IMG/VR virus record: IMGVR_UViG_3300011439_000029
Coordinates: 1-43,867 of that record
From: a virus
Lineage: Duplodnaviria; Caudoviricetes
Length of the DNA: 43,867 nt
Strand: one strand, 5' to 3'
The position numbers and the translations under genes were made by a program. Shown here in pieces: positions 18,266-43,867 of the stretch (positions are counted from its first letter, which is position 1; every line of letters begins with the position of its first letter). Below the pieces are notes generated by a model, which was not told the DNA's origin, made no database searches, and saw only the letters and a list, made by a program, of their open reading frames with translations.

Positions 18266-19567
18266 CTACTGCGGAAGGTTGGCCAGCAGCAACGCGTGCG
18301 CGATGCTGGCTTCGCTGGAGAGAGGGGCGTCGAGCAGGTTCACCAACTCGCTGGGATCGCCGTCCAAGTCGTGCAGCGCCTCGATCTTGTTACCCGAAGT
18401 GCCGGAAGGCAGCATTTTCTGGTCGACGTACTTCCAGCGCGCGTCACGAATCATACGCGACCACGGCGTCGTTGGACTCGGCGGTGCGCCAACCGCGTGA
18501 TACCAGTCGAGCGTGAGGAACTGGCGCGGCGTGGCGATCGACGACCAGCCGACCAGGTCATCACAGAAGTCCACACTGTCGGGAGCGAGCGTGACCTCAT
18601 CTCCACGCAGCCTGCGAACCGTCGCCCACAGGTCCGTGGCGGCGATCAGCCTGTCGGACACGCCGGGCACGACGCCCGTTCCACACGCGAAGAGCGGCGT
18701 GTTGTTGCCCGTCTCCTTGTAGCTGTTCTTGCCTGCGTCGCTCGAACCGTTGTCACACGCGACGATGACGACGTAGCCCTTCGCGACGGCGTCTTGGATC
18801 ACCACACCCAGCCAGTAGTCCAGGTGGAAGAGCATGTCGGAGCGGATGCGCACGTCCGTCGTACCCTGGTATACCTTGCCCAGCGGCTCATCGTTAGGCG
18901 GGAGCTCGAACGGCGAGTGGATGGCGGAGAAGCTGGCGTGGATCAACTCTGTTCCTGCCGCCAACTCACTCAGCGTCAGGTAGGCAACACGCGAGGTATT
19001 GTGCTGCGTCTGCTGGGTGATGACGACACCGGCGGAATCGGCATCGTACTCCTTCCAGTTGTAGTAACCGGTTCCGCCGATCAGCAAGCCACTCAGTAGC
19101 CCGACGAAGCGATCCCAGCCCTGCGTGATCAAGTGCACAGGGAACGTTGGACTGTTGCTGGTGTGCCACTTTCCGATCTTGACCTTCTGGCCAGGGAGCC
19201 CACTCGGAAGCCACGCACCGGCAGGACCGTCGAAGTTGTCAGCCGGCACCACAAGCCGACCGACATAGTTCTCAGGGCGATACGCGTCCGCACCGCTGAG
19301 CGCGCGCGCTCTGAAGAGCGAACAGTTGGGCGCCGCCCAGAAGGTGTTCCAGCTGCGGCCGCTGGCGATCAACGCTGCGATGTTCGAAGCGCCGCCGCTC
19401 GACATCGCGTTGCTCAACTGGTCTCGACCCAAGTCGTCAAGGTCGATGAGCAGTACTTTCCTGGCGACGCTCTCTTTGCCACCTGATGAGCTCACGTGAC
19501 TCCGCCCCGCCACTGATTGCGCCGTGACTCCTGCTGCTATTTTCATTAGCTGTCTCCTGTTCAGCAT
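18266..19567 (-). CDS. Sulfatase-family (alkaline phosphatase superfamily) hydrolase with twin-arginine signal peptide
   Basis: N-terminal 'NRRQLMK' Tat motif; 'VLLIDLDDLG' metal ligands; 'NCSLFRARALSG' at the formylglycine motif position; 'IGKWH', 'SAIHSPF', 'CDNG', 'RDARWKY', 'LHDLDGDPSELVNL'. Confidence 0.85.
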   Translation of the reverse strand: MLNRRQLMKIAAGVTAQSVAGRSHVSSSGGKESVARKVLLIDLDDLGRDQLSNAMSSGGASNIAALIASGRSWNTFWAAPNCSLFRARALSGADAYRPENYVGRLVVPADNFDGPAGAWLPSGLPGQKVKIGKWHTSNSPTFPVHLITQGWDRFVGLLSGLLIGGTGYYNWKEYDADSAGVVITQQTQHNTSRVAYLTLSELAAGTELIHASFSAIHSPFELPPNDEPLGKVYQGTTDVRIRSDMLFHLDYWLGVVIQDAVAKGYVVIVACDNGSSDAGKNSYKETGNNTPLFACGTGVVPGVSDRLIAATDLWATVRRLRGDEVTLAPDSVDFCDDLVGWSSIATPRQFLTLDWYHAVGAPPSPTTPWSRMIRDARWKYVDQKMLPSGTSGNKIEALHDLDGDPSELVNLLDAPLSSEASIAHALLLANLPQ

Positions 19568-27747: not shown

Positions 27748-27921
27748 CTAGCCTTGGATGATCGAGCCGAACACCTTCCAGCCGAGAAGGGCAACGCACG
27801 CCCAGACGAGGAGTGCTGACCCCAAGCCCGACCAGTTGCGATCGCCGCCGCGGGCGTAGGGCACCGCACCTAGGACGAACCAAAGGATCATCAGAATCCA
27901 GAACAGAAGTGAAGCGCTCAT
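27748..27921 (-). CDS. Small two-TM membrane protein (57 aa), holin candidate
   Basis: MSASLLFWILMILWFVLGAVPYARGGDRNWSGLGSALLVWACVALLGWKVFGSIIQG; AAGGAGG RBS; ATGA overlap; below ORF-track cutoff. Confidence 0.7.
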   Translation of the reverse strand: MSASLLFWILMILWFVLGAVPYARGGDRNWSGLGSALLVWACVALLGWKVFGSIIQG

Positions 27922-29242
27922 GTGTTACCCTCCTTGGGACCGGTCATCTGGAAGCCGTCGCGCAGGTAGCGATTGACTGCCTGCGCCGTGAACTCGGGGC
28001 GCCACCTGGCGCGGGACTGTTGGCGAGCTTCGAGCATGAACTCGTCGAAGCCGCCGACGCTGCGGCGGGGCATGGGATACTTCTTAGTAGACACGTAATC
28101 CGCATCCTCGAGATCGTAGTTATCGAACTGCTGGACGAGGTCCGACGTATTGCCGAAGACCTCGACACCGGGCCAGTCGAAGATCACGTTGCCCTCCGAG
28201 TAGACGGCATGCACGCCGTGGTCAAGCACTCCGTCGTCGCCCTTGTGATCGCCGTTGATGTTCAGCGCGACAAGCTGAGTGCCCTTGGCGGAGTGGGCGA
28301 TGAGGTTGCGGATCATCTGGCCACTCTTGATGTTGCGCAGCAGATCCCCCCATCCGCGAGGATCCGCGTCATTGATGTCTGCGCCCTCAACAACTACGTT
28401 GCCGATGGCCTTGAACTTCACGCCTCCCGGCTCAGGCGTGTTACCACCTCCCAGTTGCAGGCCAATCGGACAGCGCACGAAGAGGTTGTTATAGGCGACG
28501 CCGCCCGACCGCATCTGAGCCCCGTGCGAGCCTGGTCGAGAGATGATATTGCCTCGCAGCACGCAGCCCGTATTGCCATTGTCGAAGTAGACATCGTGGC
28601 TGTAGATGTTGGCGTCGCCGTTATTGTCCAGCACGCACTGTTCGACCAGCAGGTCGTCGACGCCGTAGGCATAGATGCCCTGGCTGCGCCCGCCGACGAT
28701 GGGTGAGGTGGCGTCGACGATCACGCAGCGTCTCAGTATCACGTCGCTAATCCGGCCCTCCACTCCTAGGAGGGCGACGTTGATTCCGTAGCCCTCGACG
28801 AGGCAGTCCTCGATGAGCAAACCCGCACCCTTTCTCAGGAAGCTCATGCCGGTTTCAGCGTGACCGTTGAAGTGCAGGCCGATGACGGCGAGGTGGTCCA
28901 CGCTGTCGGGCGCGTCTCCACCTCCCTGCGTTAAGACGCCACCCGGTCGCCAGTCATGAGCTTCGGCCTGTCGGGCTGCGTGCCGTAGGAGCCGATGATC
29001 ATGGGCTCCAGCACTGAGCGACCGGACATCTTCCAGTGGCCGAGGCTCTCTGTCCACGTGTCGCCCTTTCGGAGGAACATGGCATCGGGGAAGCGATTCC
29101 TCATCAGAGACTTGGCCCTCTCCAGAGTTTTCACTGGAGTCTGATACCTGAGGCCGTCATTGCCGTCAGAGCCCATCGACGACGACACGAAGATGTATCG
29201 CGCATCGTCGAAGTGCGGGAAGTGGGTCCACTTGGTTCGCAT
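27918..29242 (-). CDS. Right-handed parallel beta-helix (pectin-lyase-like) protein, split by a -1 frame break at ~28942
   Basis: N-part 'FVSSSMGSDGNDGL..PVKTLERA..PDAMFLRKGDTW..SGRS..EPMIIGSYG..RP'; C-part 'LLIEDCLVEGY', 'SQGIYAYGVDDLLVEQCVLDNNG', 'HDVYFDN', 'HGAQMRSGG..NNLF' beta-helix coils. Confidence 0.75.
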
Positions 29243-31919: not shown

Positions 31920-34250
31920 CTACTGACCTACCATGATCTGGTACAGCGCGATAAGGCCCGCCTTGTTGTCGAGCTGGAACGTCGGTTTCTCGAGCATCTT
32001 GGCTAGCGGATTCCCGCCGAACGCGTCCATGATGAGGGCATCCACGCCTGTAGACCCTGCCCTCTTCGCAGACGCGAGCAGCGACCACGTCTGCCAGTTG
32101 TCGAGATCGAGCACGACTGGTTGCGGCTTGTTGGTAAGCGTGTAGGCAGGCAGCGCAGGATTCTTGGGCCGCGGCGTCGAGCGCGTATACGGCGAGCCCT
32201 TGCCCATAGCCCAGTGGAACGCGTACCTATCGCCGACGTTGCGCAGCAGCACCGCGTACCGAGGATCTCCAGTCGCAGCGTAGCACGCAGCTACGCCGGC
32301 GCCCACGTTGATCCCGTCCTCGATGGCCTGCGTAGCGGCGTCGTCTCCGAATCCGTCTGTAGGCTTGCCCGACTCGTGCGCCAACCAGCACCCGGATGGG
32401 AGCTGCGAGCGCTCTAGCACGGTGATGTTCGCCTCCATCCACGGCTTCAGCCTGTCGCGGTTCGGCGTCACCTGGTACCACGCCGCTACGGCGAAGCGGA
32501 CCCAGCCCGCGTCGCGCCCGCCGAAGGCTCCCTTGCCTGGGAACTGTGCGGACTTCGCCAGCGCCGCGGCTAGCTCGCCCTCGCCAGTCTCGTATGAGTA
32601 CATGCGAGCCTGTTCTGCCTCGACCTCCAGCGACCAGCGGCCGATAGAGTCGTTACAGAGCCACACCAGCGAGCACGATGCTGCGGTCTTGCGACCGTGG
32701 TGTTGAAAGTCCAGCGGCTCATACGACGCGAGGTAGCTCTCGTAGGAGGGTCGAAGTCCTAAGGCTTCGACCTGGTCGCGGCGCCACTGGCTCGCAGCCT
32801 TCCAGTTCAGCTGGCCCTCCTTGCCGTTCCACATGACGCCTGGATAGGCCGATAGTTTCCAGCCAGGTGCGAGCTGCTCCGCTCGCTGAACGCCGCCCTG
32901 CATGTCGAAAATGCCAGTGCGGTGTCGGTCTGTGATAGTGCGGTGGTACGCCATCACTTCGTGCAGCTTGTCCGCGCGGCCAGTGAGAAGAACTCCCAGC
33001 CCGTCGTACTGCCAGATGCCAATGCCGCCTGTCACGCCGCCGTAGGAGCTGCCCCACGGGTGGTATGGACCCGCGGCGCCGCTGTTGCCGCCGCCTCCTG
33101 CGGGTAGCGACGTGCCGTTGGCCAGCGCGTTGCGCATACCGACCACAGTCATCTCGTAGGGATAGGCGTCTAGGTTCATCCCAGCGACGTACGTCGGCAT
33201 GGGCATCGCCTGCGGGAAGTACCACGGCGTGTTGGGGTTCTGCGGCGACCACAGCCCCTTGCCGGGAACACAGACCCCAAAGCCGTCCATGCGCAGCGCA
33301 GACAGCGCGCGTGCTGAGTCCTGCGGTTCGTACACGACAAAGCGGAACTCCGTGCACTGCTTCTGCAGCATCACATGCATGGTGCCGTCGACGTTCGCTT
33401 TGATCAGCGCGCCATTGGGATCTGCCCACGGATGAGGCAGCAGGTGCGCGACGACCTGGCCTGCCGGTATGTCGATCAAGCGCAGATCAGTGAAGTAGGA
33501 GTCGCCCTGGACGGGCACTGGTCCGTTGTGCACTACCAGTTCGCAAAGAGTGAAGTCCTCACCTGCGATTTGGGTCTCAGCGATGATGAACCCGAGCAAC
33601 GCGTCGCCTGCCTGTGAGCGCAGGTAGCCGCGCCGCTCCTCCGTCATGGCGACTGGGCCAGAGCGCGTCATGACCGAAGTCGCGTCAGTCGAGACGTACG
33701 TAGTTCCAGCGTGGTCGACGGCACGCAGCTTCAAGTCCACGTCGGTGGAAACAGCTGGCCCTGGGATGGACGCACCTGCGACGAGGCCGAACTCCTGCGT
33801 GCCTGCATTGGTCTGGGCGAGCGCCATGATCTCGACCATGCGCGCCTCGTCTTGTGGTCCGCGAGTGACGACAGTGGCCTGCGTCGCGAGTGCTCGACCG
33901 TCGCGGTCGACGAGGTGCATCGGCCCCAACTGTGCCACTGGGACGTTGACCCGTATGACGAGTTGGCCAGAGTCGGGAGGCGAGACGCGGACGCGAGCAA
34001 GCACTCCACTCGGGTCCACGGGCGGCGGGCGAGTACCAGGGTCGACGGGAGGCGGCCTCACCGGCGGCGGCCTGGTCGGCTCGTCGGGCCGCACGTACGG
34101 CGGGCGGTCGGGCCTCGTGACGACGATGACACCGCCGCCAGCTCCGCCGAGGGCGAGCAGCGCGAGCCACACCTTTCGAGCGCGTGGTGACATGCGTCGC
34201 AGAATCTCCGGCGTGATGCGCGACAGGAAGGACGTTCGATCTTGAGGCAT
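31920..34250 (-). CDS. Membrane-anchored 776-aa protein, putative PcRGLX/YetA-like polysaccharide lyase architecture
   Basis: GGAG RBS; N-terminal basic + hydrophobic anchor; Pro-rich linker (RPPPVRPPPVDP); 'VNVP...LVDRDGRALATQATVV.R', 'SGPV' then an aromatic-rich helical C-terminal region ('GRDAGW..A..A.Y', 'YAATGDPRY') like an alpha/alpha toroid. Confidence 0.5.
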   Translation of the reverse strand: MPQDRTSFLSRITPEILRRMSPRARKVWLALLALGGAGGGVIVVTRPDRPPYVRPDEPTRPPPVRPPPVDPGTRPPPVDPSGVLARVRVSPPDSGQLVIRVNVPVAQLGPMHLVDRDGRALATQATVVTRGPQDEARMVEIMALAQTNAGTQEFGLVAGASIPGPAVSTDVDLKLRAVDHAGTTYVSTDATSVMTRSGPVAMTEERRGYLRSQAGDALLGFIIAETQIAGEDFTLCELVVHNGPVPVQGDSYFTDLRLIDIPAGQVVAHLLPHPWADPNGALIKANVDGTMHVMLQKQCTEFRFVVYEPQDSARALSALRMDGFGVCVPGKGLWSPQNPNTPWYFPQAMPMPTYVAGMNLDAYPYEMTVVGMRNALANGTSLPAGGGGNSGAAGPYHPWGSSYGGVTGGIGIWQYDGLGVLLTGRADKLHEVMAYHRTITDRHRTGIFDMQGGVQRAEQLAPGWKLSAYPGVMWNGKEGQLNWKAASQWRRDQVEALGLRPSYESYLASYEPLDFQHHGRKTAASCSLVWLCNDSIGRWSLEVEAEQARMYSYETGEGELAAALAKSAQFPGKGAFGGRDAGWVRFAVAAWYQVTPNRDRLKPWMEANITVLERSQLPSGCWLAHESGKPTDGFGDDAATQAIEDGINVGAGVAACYAATGDPRYAVLLRNVGDRYAFHWAMGKGSPYTRSTPRPKNPALPAYTLTNKPQPVVLDLDNWQTWSLLASAKRAGSTGVDALIMDAFGGNPLAKMLEKPTFQLDNKAGLIALYQIMVGQ

Positions 34251-37447: not shown

Positions 37448-39379
37448 CTACTTGCTGGCGCTCGCTTTCACCTTCTTCTTGTCCGCCTCCTTCGCCTCAC
37501 TCCAGGAGACGCTGCTGACGCCTACTGACCAGCGGATGGGGACGCGGAACTTCAGCTCCGTCTCGCACAGCACCTCGCGGAAGCGCGCTTGTATAGCAGG
37601 ATCCATGATGAACTCCCTGGGTCCCTCCCATCCTAGCTCGTCGTGAACGTTCAGGATGAGGTGAGTATCGTTGTCTCTCAGCCACTGGCAGTAGCGAGGA
37701 CTCAGCGCGAGCATCCTCTCCTTGATCACATCTCCAGCCCACGACTGTATGACGGAGTTGAACGCGATCTGAGAGCGGTTGGCTGGAACATGCCGCCTCC
37801 TGCCGAACTCGTTGTAGACGTAGCCTCTGGTCTCGGCTGTCTTGGCGGCCAGCCGAGAGTACTTCCTGATTCCAGGGAAGGTGTCATGGTACGTGTCATA
37901 GATCTCGTTGGCGCGACGGGCACACAGCTCGTGGTACCTGTTCGCCCTATCCGCGTGAGCAGTCATCCCCCTCTCGATCTCGTCCTGCACCTGGGCCTGC
38001 ACCTCCTTCATGACAGAAGGATCGCTCATCAGCTGGCCCGTCACGTTCCTTCTTCCAGCTCCGTAGCCGATGGAGAAGTTGACCGTCTTGGCGGGGTCCC
38101 TCTCCATGTGACACAGCTCTGACACCCACAGGTGGAAGTCCATGTCGGGATCGCGCTCGTAGGCGGCGATGGCGTCTTCGTCCTCTATGTAGTGAACGAT
38201 TCCCCTGAACTCGATCTGAGCCGCGTCGCCTACCAGGAGGGCGTACCCGTCCCTGGGCTGTATCATCTTCTTCGCGCGATCATTGAACTGTTGGCTGTTG
38301 GGATCAGAACACGAGGTGCGCGACGTACGTATGAGCTGGTTGTATCTCGGGTGTAGCACCCCTCCATCAGTCATCTTGTCAGGCCACGAGTCGCAGAACA
38401 GCGATTTGAATGTCGCCTGCTTGGAGTACTCGAGCATGAGAGACACGAGCTCAGACAGCTCGTAGCTGGTGACTACTTCGGGTAGGCCGCGGTACACCTT
38501 CAGCGCGTCCTTGTCGAAGCTGGCGTTGCCGGCCTCCGTGCGAGCGACGATAGGCAGTCCGTACTGAGTCACGAGCAGCTCGAACTTACCAGCAGGAGAG
38601 TTGACGTACTCCTGTCCGGTGATCTCCCTCATTCGATCCTGTATCTGCAGCATTGAGACCGCGCTGGTCCACGTCTCGAGCTTGAGGGCAGTGGTGTTCA
38701 CCTGCATTCCTCTCTGCTCCATGTCGTAGAACACTGGAGTGAGACGCGTTTCCATGCTCCACACCCTGTCAAGCTGCGCAGGCTTGTTGCGCACTAGGTA
38801 TCGCCACAGCTCCCTATTTCCAAGTACGTCTTCGCACGCGTACTCGCCGCATATGTCAGCAGGAACGTCGCCGAAGTCTTTAGTCTTCGCTCCTCTCAGC
38901 CACGCATCTAGCTTGTGCTGGCCCTCCATTGGCATGTCGCACCACTCTCGGCACAGAGGCTTCAGCTCGTGCGTGAAGCGGTCCGTGTCGAGCGTCTTGC
39001 AGAGCGTAAGGGTGTCTACCAGTTCGCACAGGAAGTCTACGCCGTCTGCCTTCGCGAAGTGGGCATCGAACTTGACGTTATGGTTGATCCACTTCCTGCG
39101 CGTAGGAGAGACTGCAGCTCTGAGCCACTTGATCACTGGCTCCAGTGGAACGTTGCTGATCGACCCTCTGTGCCGAATCGGCACGTAGTACGCGCTCGAA
39201 TGGTCGTCCCACGTGACTGCGATGCCCGCTATGCGGTGACCGCGGTACGCGTAGAACGCCTCCTGCTTCGGGTCGAATGACGTCGTCTCGAAGTCCGCGA
39301 ACAGCTCAATGCATGAGTCTAGATTAGGTAGCTCTGACTCGCTCTGCACCAGGAACTTGTTAGGTCCTAGGCGGATCAT
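37448..39379 (-). CDS. polA: DNA polymerase family A (3'-5' exonuclease plus polymerase)
   Basis: ExoI 'DFETT', ExoII 'HNVKFD', ExoIII 'YACEDV'; motif A 'DAAQIEFR', motif B 'RDPAKTVNFSIGYG', motif C 'NVHDEL'. Confidence 0.96.
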   Translation of the reverse strand: MIRLGPNKFLVQSESELPNLDSCIELFADFETTSFDPKQEAFYAYRGHRIAGIAVTWDDHSSAYYVPIRHRGSISNVPLEPVIKWLRAAVSPTRRKWINHNVKFDAHFAKADGVDFLCELVDTLTLCKTLDTDRFTHELKPLCREWCDMPMEGQHKLDAWLRGAKTKDFGDVPADICGEYACEDVLGNRELWRYLVRNKPAQLDRVWSMETRLTPVFYDMEQRGMQVNTTALKLETWTSAVSMLQIQDRMREITGQEYVNSPAGKFELLVTQYGLPIVARTEAGNASFDKDALKVYRGLPEVVTSYELSELVSLMLEYSKQATFKSLFCDSWPDKMTDGGVLHPRYNQLIRTSRTSCSDPNSQQFNDRAKKMIQPRDGYALLVGDAAQIEFRGIVHYIEDEDAIAAYERDPDMDFHLWVSELCHMERDPAKTVNFSIGYGAGRRNVTGQLMSDPSVMKEVQAQVQDEIERGMTAHADRANRYHELCARRANEIYDTYHDTFPGIRKYSRLAAKTAETRGYVYNEFGRRRHVPANRSQIAFNSVIQSWAGDVIKERMLALSPRYCQWLRDNDTHLILNVHDELGWEGPREFIMDPAIQARFREVLCETELKFRVPIRWSVGVSSVSWSEAKEADKKKVKASASK

Positions 39380-39590
39380 CGACAGGTTCTTCTACTTGTA
39401 CAGACCTGAGATCCTCGACACGCTCCATGTTTATGGTGCGCACCATGTAGTGGCCGATCTTCTTGTGAAGGATCGCGCCAGCTATCACTGCGGCCTTTAT
39501 GGGGTCGGTCGTTACGATGAGGACTGACACCTTGAATCGCACCGTTTCAGGCGGAGGAGTAAGTCCGTCGATGTCGACTCGATAGCTCAT
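39360..39590 (-). CDS. Hypothetical protein
   Basis: 76 aa; ATGA coupling. Confidence 0.55.
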   Translation of the reverse strand: MSYRVDIDGLTPPPETVRFKVSVLIVTTDPIKAAVIAGAILHKKIGHYMVRTINMERVEDLRSVQVEEPVDDPPRT

Positions 39591-39979
39591 GCCTCGTCTC
39601 CCTTCACGACCTCGATGCCAGCTAACCTCAGGATGTCTATGCCCCTGAGGTCATGCTCGAGAGGCCTGAGATACACTACGCGCTTGAACAACTTGCTACT
39701 CACGCACAGGTTGGCGCATGCAGTACAGGGTGACAGGGTGACCCACAGTTCACACTGGCCTTGAGGCGCCCCATCACGAAGCGCAGACAGAACGGCACGA
39801 ACCTCGGCGTGAAGGCATCCGCAGTTGCCTTTTATTCCGTTGCACCACGCGCTGCCGTTGATGCTGGCAGCGCGCATCTCATTGCCATGCGAGACTCTCG
39901 CAGCAGTTCCACGTCGGTGACACTCAGTCATAGACTCAGCGATACCGGCGTCGCTGATGAGTTGACTCAGAACATCCAT
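39587..39979 (-). CDS. dCMP deaminase (cytidine deaminase fold)
   Basis: Zn motifs 'LHAE' and 'TLSPCTAC'; 'RVVY', 'GIDILRLAGIEV'; start re-called after GGAGG. Confidence 0.88.
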   Translation of the reverse strand: MDVLSQLISDAGIAESMTECHRRGTAARVSHGNEMRAASINGSAWCNGIKGNCGCLHAEVRAVLSALRDGAPQGQCELWVTLSPCTACANLCVSSKLFKRVVYLRPLEHDLRGIDILRLAGIEVVKGDEA

Positions 39980-40509
39980 CGGTCCCTCCACGTCGACACC
40001 AGCTGGTCGACCATCGCGTCGTCAGGGAACTTCCCGTCAGTAACGTCGTGCTCGAAGTCGCAGTACTTCTCGCCGTGGTTCGCTGACTTCGACAGCATGC
40101 GGAAGATGTCATTGGCGTCGAGGATGATGTCGTGCGAGTACATCTCTTCGCGCGTCTTATTCAGGTGCTCTTTCAGCCACCACCGGTCGGCGTGCATGAT
40201 CAGTACGATGGCACCCTGCCACCGAAGGTATCGCTGCACCCACAGCATCTGCTTCGGAGTAGGGCAGCCGCCATTACCAAGCATTCGACCATACGAGATG
40301 GCGCCGAGGTGGAAGCGGTCCCACACATGCGGACCAACTCGCTCGACGTAGCCGTTGAAGTGGTCGAACTCCTTCGGCGGCCTGCTGAGGTGTCGATACA
40401 CCCTGTCGTACATGCCATCGTTCGCGTACAGCTCGGTTGCCAGCCTCCTCGATAGCTTGTGCGCGAGCGTCGTCTTGCCTACCTGGTCTGAACCTTCGAT
40501 GATGATCAA
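39967..40509 (-). CDS. dNMP kinase (thymidylate-kinase-like P-loop)
   Basis: 'IIIEGSDQVGKTT' P-loop; 'WDRFHLG..YG'. Confidence 0.88.
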   Translation of the reverse strand: MIIIEGSDQVGKTTLAHKLSRRLATELYANDGMYDRVYRHLSRPPKEFDHFNGYVERVGPHVWDRFHLGAISYGRMLGNGGCPTPKQMLWVQRYLRWQGAIVLIMHADRWWLKEHLNKTREEMYSHDIILDANDIFRMLSKSANHGEKYCDFEHDVTDGKFPDDAMVDQLVSTWRDRWMF

Positions 40510-41435
40510 GTGAGCTTACTCCGGAGCTTGGGACAGTGGTTCATGATGAGGACAGGATCTACAGTCTCGCACAGGTTTACGACGTCGTCGTAACCGTGCT
40601 GCACCGCGCACAGGTGCGAGAGAGTCGTAATGATGTGACGATTGCCGTAATATAGGGGCTCAGACTTGCCGCGTCTAACGTTGACCTCGTTGATGACGAG
40701 ACGCTGGACGGCGTCCCACATGTCATCGACGTTCTGGAACGAGAAGTCGATGTCGAGAGCGTCGGCATGAGTTCTGAACTCAAGCGCAGTCGTCACCTTC
40801 GCGTAGTCTTTCTCGTAGGCATGCATTGATCCTACTTGGTGCTGATAGAACCCGCACTCGAGGTGAAGCGCACCCGCGATCATGCGCTGCATCGTCGTGA
40901 AGCACCACACATCATACGGCATTCCCAGCCACAGGTCGTTGGATCGCATGGTAGTGATGAGGTGCAGTTTGCCCTCGCGACGTATGAACTGCAGTGACAG
41001 CGTGCAAGGGACGTCTGGTGTGACTCCTTTAGCGGCATGTACGATGTCATGTGCTATGATTATCGGAACTACCGCCTGTCGAGAGCCGTCACGCGACAGC
41101 ATGAACAGTACGGAACCTAGGGCGTCTTGAATTCGCGGACCGTAGGCGCCAGGGGCGACACCATCGACCAGGTACTTCTTGTACGACGGCGCGTAGGCGC
41201 AGATCTGTTCGCCGCTTCCTCTGCCCGAGAGGTACCACACTAGCTCTCCAGCAGCGTACTGTGCCGACAGCGCGCGACCTGGGTTGTGAAGCCAGTTGTG
41301 ACTCACGTCGTCGAGTCGTGATCTCAGGCCCAGTACTTCCCTGGTCAGACCGACGCGAGACTCGACGCTCTCACCGTGACTCATCACCCGAGTGGCAGCG
41401 TCCTCCCACACTGTGTCAAAGTTCTTGAACCCCAC
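40506..41435 (-). CDS. Thymidylate-synthase-fold enzyme, probable dCMP hydroxymethylase/methylase
   Basis: Start re-called at GTG 41433-41435; 'ELVWYLSG', 'YGPR', 'SRQA', catalytic 'DVPCT', 'MRSNDLWLGMPYD' (Asp where ThyA has Asn), 'GSMHAY'. Confidence 0.85.
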   Translation of the reverse strand: MGFKNFDTVWEDAATRVMSHGESVESRVGLTREVLGLRSRLDDVSHNWLHNPGRALSAQYAAGELVWYLSGRGSGEQICAYAPSYKKYLVDGVAPGAYGPRIQDALGSVLFMLSRDGSRQAVVPIIIAHDIVHAAKGVTPDVPCTLSLQFIRREGKLHLITTMRSNDLWLGMPYDVWCFTTMQRMIAGALHLECGFYQHQVGSMHAYEKDYAKVTTALEFRTHADALDIDFSFQNVDDMWDAVQRLVINEVNVRRGKSEPLYYGNRHIITTLSHLCAVQHGYDDVVNLCETVDPVLIMNHCPKLRSKLT

Positions 41436-41436
41436 G

Positions 41437-41712
41437 TCAGTCCTTCTTGACGACGGCAAGTACTGCCTCGTCATGAGCCAGCAGCCAGCCGTTCTTGGCA
41501 TCGATGCCGATGACGCCAGTCGGGTTGACAATGACGATTGCTCCGATCTCGTAGTCTTCGCTGCACTTCGGTCCCTTGGCCTTGACTTGGCACATCGTCT
41601 TTGACTGCATGCGCTCTCTCACGCCTTCTGGCAGCGCGAGAGCGGTGGGAGTCTCGTCGACTCTCTTGATGACGAGCCACGGGCCGCGGGGAATCAGGTT
41701 CTCGGGTTGCAT
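41437..41712 (-). CDS. GroES/Cpn10-like co-chaperonin
   Basis: 'LIPRGPWLVIKR', mobile-loop-like 'ALALPE', 'QVKAKGP', 'IGAIVIV', 'LLAHDEAVLAVV'; AGGAG RBS. Confidence 0.8.
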   Translation of the reverse strand: MQPENLIPRGPWLVIKRVDETPTALALPEGVRERMQSKTMCQVKAKGPKCSEDYEIGAIVIVNPTGVIGIDAKNGWLLAHDEAVLAVVKKD

Positions 41713-42164
41713 CTTGCTACGATCTCCTTGAAGTTAGGAGGAGTGAACGCCGCACCCTTCTTGGGCTTGTGTTGACCGTCCACGTCCTTGCTCATGTTTG
41801 ACTCGTGCACCTCGTCGTGGATCTCGTCCATCGGCATGCCGAAAGTTACGGCAGTACCTAGCACTACGTACTGTAAGTCTCCCAGTGCGTCAGCGAGTTT
41901 CTCGTAGTCTCCATCTCGCATCGCTTCGCACATCTCCGACAGCTCCTCTGACATCAGCTGCATTCGCTGGATGCGCGCGTCGACCTTTCCGTCAACTGCG
42001 TTGCGAACGCACGACATCAGGTCTTGCGACACTTCACGCAGTCGGCGAGTGACGCCGCCCAGCATGATCTGGTCTCGGTGAGTGGCGCTGCGAGGAAGCA
42101 ACTCTTCGCCGATGCTGAACCCGTACTTCTCGTGAAACGCCCGTACGTCGTCTTGCTGTCTCAT
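41694..42164 (-). CDS. MazG-like all-alpha NTP pyrophosphohydrolase
   Basis: 'VRAFHEKYG', 'EELSEM.EA', 'LADALGDLQYV..G', 'EVHESNMSK', 'K..F.PP'. Confidence 0.9.
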   Translation of the reverse strand: MRQQDDVRAFHEKYGFSIGEELLPRSATHRDQIMLGGVTRRLREVSQDLMSCVRNAVDGKVDARIQRMQLMSEELSEMCEAMRDGDYEKLADALGDLQYVVLGTAVTFGMPMDEIHDEVHESNMSKDVDGQHKPKKGAAFTPPNFKEIVARCNPRT

Positions 42165-43867
42165 CAGAACTTCGCTCCTTCTTCAGTCTCTGCTTGGTTC
42201 GGCATGCCCTCTCCCTCCATCTTCTTGAGCAGTTCGATGAACTTGCCCGTTTTGACGTAGGAGAACCTTGATATCCTGGTGAGAGCGTGCTTGCGCACTA
42301 GGAATGACATCACTCCCTGAGCGTTATCGCGATCGAGCTGGCACCAGTCCATGATGTCTTGAAGAGATATCTCGTCTCTATATAGCAACCCCTGCACTAC
42401 GTCCGAAGGGTGTCGAAGTCCCCTTAGGTACTTGCGTACCTGCTGCGGGTTGACGAGTGTAGACGCGTGTTGCTGCGCCTTCGAGAAGTCCAAGTAGCCG
42501 AACGTCTTGCTGCTGTAGATCCTGTCGAGCGTCTGCGACACGAACTCGACATGACACCGCCTGACTACCAGCTCATACATGCTGTCAGACGAGGAGAACG
42601 TCCTCGCTGCCATGGCGGCGGCTAGTCGAGCGAGCTTGAGGCGCATCGTACCCCTGTCTACCAGCGGCATCGCCTCGCTGAACCTAGAGCACATCTTACC
42701 CGCCCACTCCAGTACCGCCTCCTGAGACCCTGGTTCGAACTGCACCTGGTCGATGGTTCGAGTCCACGCCCACAGCACAAGTCGCTTGCACAGGTCCGCT
42801 GAGAACCGATGGTCCACTATGGGACGCTGCGAGCTGTATCTGTTGACGGTGTCTGGATCGATCTCGTCTGCGCTCACTAGCAGCGCAAGGTCAAATCGCC
42901 TTACGTCCTCGAGACCGCCTATCAGCTCGCTGATGGCTTCTATTCCGAACGAGTACGACCTCATTGCGCGGTTTGATCGAGCGTTTGAGATGTAGACGCC
43001 TCGAGTTCGAGCGTGCGTCCTCCTGCGCTCTATCTTGGGAATTTCTGCTATGCCAGACGATCTCATGTCTGTCATCTTAGCGATGACTTCGATGGGCAGC
43101 CCTTTGAGTTCCTCAAGGAACAGGATCCGCCTGTCGTGCATGGGAAACATTCCCCAGCTCACGAACCACCTCGTACCTATCTGCTGAAGACCGCCCAGCA
43201 GGCCGGCTATGGTGGCGTTCTTGCAGTCTACTCGCTCTCCCAGCCCGTAGTGCTCCATCAGTCGCACGCTGGTCTCAGACTTTCCCTGCGACGAGTCACC
43301 GACTATCAGCGCGCTCAGCCAGCCGTTGACCCTCTTGTCGTCGAACCTGAACATTAGCGGAGAGTGGAACGCGAGATCAATGACGAGGTGAAGGTCACGC
43401 CTTCCGAAGATGCGCGTAACGTTCGCCTCGAAGTCCTCGTACACGTCGTCGACTCTCGACTGTATGGACTCAGCCGTCCACTCTTCGGGCCTGAACGCCT
43501 CGAGCTGCGCCAGCTGGTCGTCGTCAGGGTGGAAAGAGGTGAGACTGTCCGTCGTCTCTTCTGCGTCGTTGACTACCAGCACTGCCTGCTGGTTCCTCGG
43601 GTGTGGGTACACGACTCCGCCGAACAGCATCGGTGTGTTCATCTCAGGACGACGATTCACCAGCATGGCAGGCTGCACCACGCTGTTGTGCGACGTGTCG
43701 CTGATTTCGAGTCGCGGCACTAGCCTGACGTCTCTCACGCTGTGGTGGGTCTTCACCGAGAACTCGACCACCTTGCAGGTAGGGATCCTCAGCGCCTCCC
43801 GTATGGCATCCCTCTGCGACTGCTTGCCAGTGTTCACCATGTCCAGTATGTGAACCGTCGTCTCTGA
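42164..43867 (-). CDS. MCM-like AAA+ replicative helicase (5' end outside window)
   Basis: 'IVGDSSQGKS' Walker A, 'TIAGLLGG', 'WFVSWG..PMHDRRILFLEE' Walker B, 'IPKI..THARTR..ISN' pre-sensor/sensor 1, 'RRFDL' Arg finger; frame open to the window edge. Confidence 0.85.
   Translation of the reverse strand, partial: SETTVHILDMVNTGKQSQRDAIREALRIPTCKVVEFSVKTHHSVRDVRLVPRLEISDTSHNSVVQPAMLVNRRPEMNTPMLFGGVVYPHPRNQQAVLVVNDAEETTDSLTSFHPDDDQLAQLEAFRPEEWTAESIQSRVDDVYEDFEANVTRIFGRRDLHLVIDLAFHSPLMFRFDDKRVNGWLSALIVGDSSQGKSETSVRLMEHYGLGERVDCKNATIAGLLGGLQQIGTRWFVSWGMFPMHDRRILFLEELKGLPIEVIAKMTDMRSSGIAEIPKIERRRTHARTRGVYISNARSNRAMRSYSFGIEAISELIGGLEDVRRFDLALLVSADEIDPDTVNRYSSQRPIVDHRFSADLCKRLVLWAWTRTIDQVQFEPGSQEAVLEWAGKMCSRFSEAMPLVDRGTMRLKLARLAAAMAARTFSSSDSMYELVVRRCHVEFVSQTLDRIYSSKTFGYLDFSKAQQHASTLVNPQQVRKYLRGLRHPSDVVQGLLYRDEISLQDIMDWCQLDRDNAQGVMSFLVRKHALTRISRFSYVKTGKFIELLKKMEGEGMPNQAETEEGAKF

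Follow-up and report, generated by a model that had tools for sequence, protein, structure and literature searches.

Active site of a predicted phage dCMP hydroxymethylase

We analysed IMG/VR virus record IMGVR_UViG_3300011439_000029 (Caudoviricetes), a stretch of 43,867 nucleotides that is called the window here and comprises an entire contig, about 73% complete, whose end falls within a primase-helicase gene. Eight genes of the window, from the primase-helicase through a family A DNA polymerase (PolA), form one overlapping replication operon, and among them is a gene for an enzyme of the thymidylate synthase (TS) fold that is predicted to be a dCMP hydroxymethylase. With a probability that we put at roughly 75%, this enzyme would supply 5-hydroxymethyl-dCTP (5hm-dCTP) to PolA, with 5-hydroxymethylcytosine (5hmC) replacing cytosine in the phage DNA, probably as a means of resistance to host nucleases.

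The open reading frame (ORF) at 40506-41435 on the minus strand encodes a protein that contains MRSNDLWLGMPYD, and codon 40911-40913 reads GAT (Asp175). The protein was aligned with E. coli ThyA (from MG1655), T4 gp42, RB69 gp48, the TS of Xp12, SPO1 gp29 and four other phage proteins, all taken from annotated records, and Asp175 aligned on ThyA Asn177, in agreement with the original prediction. The key residues are E64, Y98, R119, D141, C144, S165, D167, D175, H205 and Y207, among which C144 and E64 are the catalytic Cys and Glu of the TS fold, and the enzyme is identical to T4 gp42 at ThyA sites 58, 94, 143, 146, 147, 165-169, 173, 177, 207 and 209. Asp at site 177, which is Asn in ThyA, SPO1 gp29 and the AG3 homolog, is reported to confer preference for dCMP (PMC8670742; PMC13326640), and sites 177 and 147, the latter being Thr145 in the window and His in ThyA, are described as the top two that separate modified from unmodified contigs (PMC8670742). 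Out of 1748 homologs found, 120 were listed and the best 80 of these aligned; Asp175 is invariant in the 80, and a pattern parse of the 120 gave Asp at site 177 in 120/120 and at site 143 in 119/120.

Site 143, three residues before the catalytic Cys, is Leu in ThyA and Asp141 in the window. The hydroxymethylases T4 gp42, SPO1 gp29 and the AG3 homolog, which is presumably of the ViI type, have Asp at this site, and the methylating ThyA and Xp12 enzymes have Leu and Asn, respectively (Xp12 Asn162). An acid here is described as a mark of hydroxymethylases (PMC13326640), and the T4 mutant D145N is reported to lose activity (PMC6400193). Asp141 points to a hydroxymethyl rather than a methyl product, which narrows the original prediction: the proposed substitution of cytosine is supported, and of the two bases it allowed, 5-hydroxymethyl- and 5-methylcytosine (5mC), the second is disfavoured.

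By sequence (E 4e-23) as well as by the fold of the AlphaFold model (pLDDT 96.5; TM about 0.8), the best PDB match is the CMP hydroxymethylase MilA, and structures of the HY126 hydroxylase are also among the top matches. These similarities would fit either a flavin-dependent dCMP hydroxylase that makes 5-hydroxycytosine (5hoC), as in RB69 and HY126, or a MilA-like enzyme acting on CMP, both of which we consider most improbable. Synthases of 5-hydroxy-dCMP (5hodCMP) are reported to be marked by Asn at site 169 (PMC13326640), instead of which the window keeps the Asp of ThyA (Asp167), and this argues against a 5-hydroxycytosine product. Furthermore, the CMP preference of MilA is ascribed to Lys133 and Ala176 (PMC5175136), in place of which the window enzyme has Arg119 and Ser165, residues that point to dCMP rather than CMP as the substrate.

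Composition of the replication operon

At their seven junctions the eight genes overlap by 1-20 nt or leave a 1-nt gap, and they are arranged as follows.

42164..43867, minus strand: primase-helicase, C-terminal part, truncated by the contig end (phrog_18685, phrog_10371)
41694..42164, minus strand: MazG-like dNTP pyrophosphohydrolase of the phosphoribosyl-ATP pyrophosphohydrolase (PRA-PH) type, DR2231-like (PF01503, E 5e-14)
41437..41712, minus strand: GroES/Cpn10-like co-chaperonin (ESM Atlas Cpn10 clusters, score 0.95, TM 0.69)
40506..41435, minus strand: TS-fold enzyme, predicted dCMP 5-hydroxymethylase (309 aa, GTG start; from residues and AlphaFold model)
39967..40509, minus strand: P-loop nucleoside monophosphate kinase, Tmk/dNK-like and YorR-like (phrog_761, weak; PDB YorR, E 4e-5; Atlas Tmk/dNK clusters, 0.97)
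39587..39979, minus strand: zinc deaminase of the dCMP/dCTP family (PF00383, E 1e-9; HAE...PCxxC intact)
39360..39590, minus strand: 76-aa ORF that overlaps both neighbours, no family match
37448..39379, minus strand: family A DNA polymerase with 3'-5' exonuclease (PF00476, PF01612; motifs located)

The close coupling of the TS-fold gene to the kinase, deaminase, MazG-like and PolA genes had been noticed in the original prediction and holds, while two ORFs within the block had been overlooked. One is the 76-aa ORF, which has no match in Pfam, PHROGs or NCBIfam and no homolog in 81 related loci; the other is the GroES-like ORF, for which no Pfam match, no homolog in the 81 loci and no GroEL partner in the window were found and which is probably a passenger in the nucleotide operon. 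The primase-helicase covers 567 aa in the window and about 930-980 aa in full-length relatives; the homolog in L016 shows CHC2 and Toprim domains. PolA, at 198 bits, falls short of the DpoZ cut-off of 500 bits.

The MazG-like protein matches only DR2231, which we take to be a dUTPase, among PDB entries; it resembles the PRA-PH of Xp12 (E 5e-8) and gives no match with T4 gp56. Its role as a dCTPase/dUTPase is putative, and the dCTPase step is the weakest of the mechanism proposed below. In its favour, by analogy, are the Xp12 homolog, which adjoins the TS of that phage, a NUDIX hydrolase that, in the complete relative L009 (L174:10604-11071), stands in place of MazG between the helicase and TS genes, and other all-alpha dUTPases, which are reported to hydrolyse dCTP (PMC5608427). 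The P-loop kinase, a putative 5hm-dCMP kinase, shows no similarity to T4 gp1 by BLAST. The comparison with the T4 enzyme set that had been drawn earlier is therefore apt with respect to predicted function and does not extend to homology of these two proteins with gp56 and gp1. The best PDB match of the deaminase is the deoxycytidylate deaminase 1vq2.

Taken by themselves, the four family labels would also fit an ordinary supply of thymidylate, in which PolA would draw on dTTP made by way of a dUTPase (as DR2231 presumably is), a dCMP deaminase, a thymidylate synthase and a dTMP kinase, and the DNA would remain canonical. A TS gene is reported near 104 of 149 deaminases on modified contigs vs 17 of 277 on unmodified ones (bioRxiv 10.1101/2024.12.05.627091), and the latter cases would be in line with such a supply. 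However, Asp175 and Thr145 replace ThyA Asn177 and His147 at precisely the two top separating sites, the window enzyme scores far under the cut-off of every NCBIfam thymidylate synthase model, and some relatives carry ThyX in addition, so that we regard an ordinary thymidylate pathway as very unlikely.

Related loci and partner modules

Relatives were found with an alignment query of viral contigs, a scan with the single protein having given none. The 81 loci around TS homologs (80 from IMG/VR and the Manatee Spring siphovirus MW202657), in which loci cut short were scored as misses, contain homologs of the kinase in 63 cases, PolA in 62, MazG in 57, the helicase in 50 and the deaminase in 39, and the recurrent order is helicase, MazG, TS, kinase, deaminase, PolA.

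We searched 47 whole contigs of the 54 core loci, leaving out seven near-duplicates or short pieces; three near-duplicate pairs remain in the set. A DCM-like family was found in 27 of them (the weak match in Manatee could be an ordinary methylase) and the helical domain of 5-hydroxymethyldeoxyuridine (5-hmdU) kinase, HMUDK (PF18723), in 18. No contig of the 47 combines the modules, and two contigs, which are 40% and 67% complete, lack them both. Each of the 19 contigs with a completeness of at least 90% has exactly one, DCM-like in 11 and HMUDK-helical in 8. A Fisher test on this exclusivity overstates the case, as the genomes are related, and since 3-4 switches between the modules suffice on the PolA tree, the pattern reflects a few independent events, not 47. 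The partner modules are candidates for undescribed decoration of hydroxymethylcytosine (hmC), and their distribution suggests two interchangeable, undescribed ways to decorate hydroxymethylated bases. The literature search, which left most subscription journals outside, found no assay of the TS clade or of either module.

The DCM-like module is a C5-methyltransferase homolog with altered motifs, usually located right before the TS gene (L033:7338-8597, L016:14626-15813), and stand-alone HMUDK helical domains are seen, for example, at G002:C1:42165-43076 and G003:C1:59712-60590.

Neither module is present in the window. Family and profile searches of the window also found no glycosyltransferase, including the T4-type beta-glucosyltransferase, as had been noted from the sequence earlier; this absence is uninformative, however, as roughly a quarter of the genome is lacking and with it the region in which such genes reside in relatives. 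When profiles built from 21 neighbour families of the relatives were run against the window, only a VRR-NUC-like gene matched. The SNF2 helicase, the ligase and three small genes that are conserved in the clade are not in the window and are therefore placed in the missing part. As all 19 near-complete relatives carry exactly one partner module and the window neither, a gene in the missing part probably hypermodifies the base. For several reasons we favour a module of the HMUDK type there. A supported group of the PolA tree unites the window with 16 relatives of the HMUDK type and 3 of the DCM type; the latter three have their DCM-like gene 3.5-8 kb after the TS gene, a stretch that is present in the window without such a gene; and the nearest HMUDK-type relative has its HMUDK-helical gene upstream of the helicase, beside a gene of the uracil-DNA glycosylase (UDG) family and a ligase. 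A DCM-like gene in the missing DNA appears rather unlikely, and so, to the same degree, does the lack of both modules.

In genome G046 (L180:3854-5387), a UDG-family gene, with a ligase and a pyrimidine-dimer glycosylase encoded nearby, directly follows the HMUDK-helical gene and could repair deaminated hmC. The window deaminase lacks the Gly-Tyr ahead of the conserved Asn-Gly, as do most HMUDK-type relatives, Gly-Tyr being present in Xp12 and most DCM-type relatives.

Product of the pathway and alternatives

The relatives also bear on the product. TAGT glycosyltransferases need a hydroxymethyl acceptor. The same is reported for the 5-hmdU kinase (PMC8989533). In the 18 HMUDK-helical-type contigs a TAGT gene was found in 11 and a 5-hmdU-kinase-like gene in 5 others (2 over the cut-off), and these 16 genomes, with partner enzymes that need a hydroxyl handle, speak for a 5hmC product in the window as well. 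By analogy, the TS of the Enterococcus siphophage VPE25 has Asp at the same three sites (143, 169 and 177), and its DNA is reported to test as glycosylated at cytosine (PMC4999554), which is likewise for 5hmC. These partner-gene searches and those that follow covered 31 records (the window, the 18 HMUDK-helical-type and 12 of the 27 DCM-type contigs). Each holds exactly one TS-family gene, and dihydrofolate reductase (DHFR) was found in none of the 31 with Pfam (the divergent Xp12 protein had been a weak query, and the window genome itself is incomplete), while methylating Xp12 carries a DHFR gene adjoining its deaminase. Hydroxymethylation by a TS-fold enzyme leaves the folate unoxidised, so the lack of DHFR fits a hydroxymethylase. 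Moreover, three relatives (L016, L044, L049) have ThyX alongside the Asp-type TS as a separate source of dTMP. Both observations argue for 5hmC.

The same data can be held against the route of Xp12, in which dCMP would be methylated, 5mC would replace cytosine and a 5mC-selective deaminase would turn 5-methyl-dCTP into dTTP. Xp12 and the window share the order of PRA-PH, TS(Asp) and deaminase, five of seven tested deaminase-linked TS enzymes are reported to yield 5-methyl-dCMP (bioRxiv 10.1101/2024.12.05.627091), each of the 31 records has a single TS-family gene, and Gly96 of the window enzyme lacks the hydroxyl of T4 Ser94. We nevertheless consider the route unlikely, given Asp141 in the window vs Asn162 in Xp12, DHFR in 0/31 records, a window TS that is far nearer to MilA than to the Xp12 enzyme and the hydroxyl-requiring partner enzymes of the relatives.

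A second alternative retains the hydroxymethylase and assigns a different role to the deaminase, which would be selective for hydroxymethylated cytosine nucleotides and convert part of the 5hm-dCTP into 5hm-dUTP. One TS-fold enzyme would then give rise to both triphosphates, hmC and, in place of thymine, hydroxymethyluracil (hmU) would replace both pyrimidines, and the HMUDK-helical module in the missing part would decorate hmU. The deaminase was found in 18/18 HMUDK-helical-type relatives vs 12/27 DCM-type ones (one weak, distant match; some loci cut short), and that of the window groups with a mostly HMUDK-type set (16 vs 2; support 93, not starred). The 5-hmdU-kinase-like genes of five HMUDK-helical-type relatives and the UDG-family gene beside the HMUDK-helical gene of the nearest such relative also fit, and phage deaminases of the family, co-expressed in E. 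coli with T4 gp42 and gp1, are reported to put 5hmdU into DNA (bioRxiv 10.1101/2024.12.05.627091). On the other hand, the association of deaminase and HMUDK goes with descent (the deaminase tree shows 2 changes) and hence reflects few events, a link to 5mdC was predicted for the positives in the published screen (bioRxiv 10.1101/2024.12.05.627091), hmC itself could be the target of TAGT and kinase-type enzymes, no dTTPase was identified and none of these partner genes is present in the window. Selectivity for 5mC or 5hmC nucleotides is reported as a polyphyletic trait of these deaminases (mSCD preprint). A literature search on this point, which yielded only the two MetaGPA papers and a review, found no description of a phage in which both hmC and hmU replace the normal bases; if it exists, such a double replacement would do with hydroxymethyl groups what the Xp12 route does with methyl groups. 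We hold both the double substitution and the deaminase selectivity that it presupposes to be unlikely.

Several observations weigh against dCMP hydroxymethylation followed by replacement of cytosine with 5hmC. At Gly96, two residues before the conserved Tyr and invariant in the 80 homologs, a Ser/Thr is reported to belong to the T4-family signature (T4 Ser94; PMC6400193). The position is not diagnostic, since SPO1 gp29 has Ala and the methylase Xp12 has Ser; because of this departure from the signature, however, the window enzyme is not filed under the T4 gp42 subfamily, and our claim is that it would work like gp42. A phylogeny of 40506..41435 had been suggested as a check; the tree that we built is poorly resolved (12/28 inner branches open), T4 gp42 is a long branch on it, and dUMP hydroxymethylases share the open group of the window, so that the substrate cannot be fixed from this tree. 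The closest named phage proteins are 30-45% identical, and no assayed enzyme was traceable in the TS clade. In addition, PRA-PH homologs are present in many phages of other kinds and the only structural match, DR2231, is presumably a dUTPase; the deaminase, whose dCMP role is putative, was detected in only 39 of the 81 loci; and the completeness of the cytosine substitution is not readable from sequence.

From the gene content, the gene coupling and the active-site residues, which were read directly, we infer the following route to 5hmC. The PRA-PH enzyme would hydrolyse dCTP (and dUTP) to the monophosphate, thereby removing dCTP and supplying dCMP, which the TS-fold enzyme would hydroxymethylate with methylene-tetrahydrofolate and water, with Cys144 as the nucleophile, Asp175 reading the cytosine and Asp141 positioning the water. 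The kinase would form 5hm-dCDP and a host kinase the triphosphate, PolA would incorporate 5hm-dCTP, and the deaminase would turn some of the dC pool into dUMP, from which the host would make thymidylate. After replication, a gene in the missing ~16 kb would decorate the hydroxyl, for which the HMUDK-helical type is more likely than the DCM-like type.

Phage type and sequence context

Family searches of the window ORFs detected portal (PF04860), capsid (PF05065), tape-measure and major tail proteins, with no sheath match among the 56 ORFs. This gene set fits an HK97-type siphovirus, as had been proposed. Apart from the contig itself, the closest long match that a metagenome scan recovered was at about 47%; a 55% homolog is known (P0002), whose contig the scan did not recover. 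The window stretch is present in one sequencing run, which may be its source and is then not independent, with no differing letters in the contigs; no sequence past the contig end was among the pieces of the run listed, and no RNA data sets containing the stretch were listed. Palindrome and dinucleotide counts gave no pattern splitting modified from unmodified DNA, with mixed values for Xp12 itself.

Between the terminase and portal genes (18266-19567, minus strand) lies an S1 sulfatase-like gene (PDB 9bau, E 1e-9) with a twin-arginine-like N-terminus, which may point to a host or environment with abundant sulfated polysaccharide; relative G001 likewise encodes a sulfatase. The minus strand also encodes a right-handed beta-helix protein (27918-29057; PF13229) and a 776-aa protein with a hydrophobic and proline-rich N-terminal stretch and no family match (31920-34250).

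Comparison with known systems

The original prediction had the module work with PolA rather than PolB, in an HK97-type siphovirus. Such a combination is not surprising: a gene neighbourhood that comprises TS, deaminase, PRA-PH, PolA and exonuclease is described as typical of contigs with modified cytosine (MetaGPA; bioRxiv 10.1101/2024.12.05.627091; PMC8670742), it recurs in dozens of the relatives, and siphophages with modified cytosine are already on record, namely Xp12 and VPE25 (PMC4999554). The module is published and common, and the window adds one more example of phage counter-defence. As in MetaGPA, the five domains lie within a few kb, Asp is present at site 177 and the deaminase is within 3 kb of TS(Asp177); the window differs in its GroES-like insert, in a product known by prediction and in the lack of a carbamoyltransferase, which was found in 0/5 records (the window and four relatives). 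The cassette is useful mainly as an assay candidate, with a compact set of predicted dCMP hydroxymethylase, kinase and deaminase, while the more interesting lead is the two uncharacterised partner modules of the clade, whose genes lie outside the window.

The enzyme differs from the dCMP methylase of Xp12 at site 143, from the 5hodCMP synthases of RB69 and HY126 at site 169, and from ThyA and the dUMP hydroxymethylases at site 177. With the 5hmC pathway of T4 (gp56, gp42, gp1, Cd and alpha/beta-glucosyltransferases) the window shares the predicted chemistry and the catalytic and specificity residues of gp42, but its TS is only 23% identical to gp42 (over 172 aa), no homology of its pyrophosphohydrolase to gp56 or of its kinase to gp1 is detectable, its genes are in one block, it has PolA instead of PolB, and no T4-type beta-glucosyltransferase was found. 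The Xanthomonas siphophage Xp12, with full 5mC substitution, has adjacent PRA-PH, TS(Asp) and deaminase genes in the same order; it differs by Asn at site 143 and a DHFR, whereas the window has Asp at this site and a kinase gene that separates those of TS and deaminase, and no DHFR was found in it. MilA (PDB 5b6d, 5jnh), which has Asp at sites 143 and 177 and is the best match in sequence and fold, belongs to an antibiotic pathway rather than a phage replication operon, and its Lys133/Ala176 go with ribose, unlike the Arg119/Ser165 of the window, which would go with deoxyribose. Finally, the Enterococcus siphophages VPE25 and VFW and the Lactobacillus phage ATCCB have a beta-glucosyltransferase close to the TS gene, and VPE25 a polymerase of the Pol III alpha type, but their TS enzymes are 30-39% identical to that of the window and share its Asp at all of the sites 143, 169 and 177.

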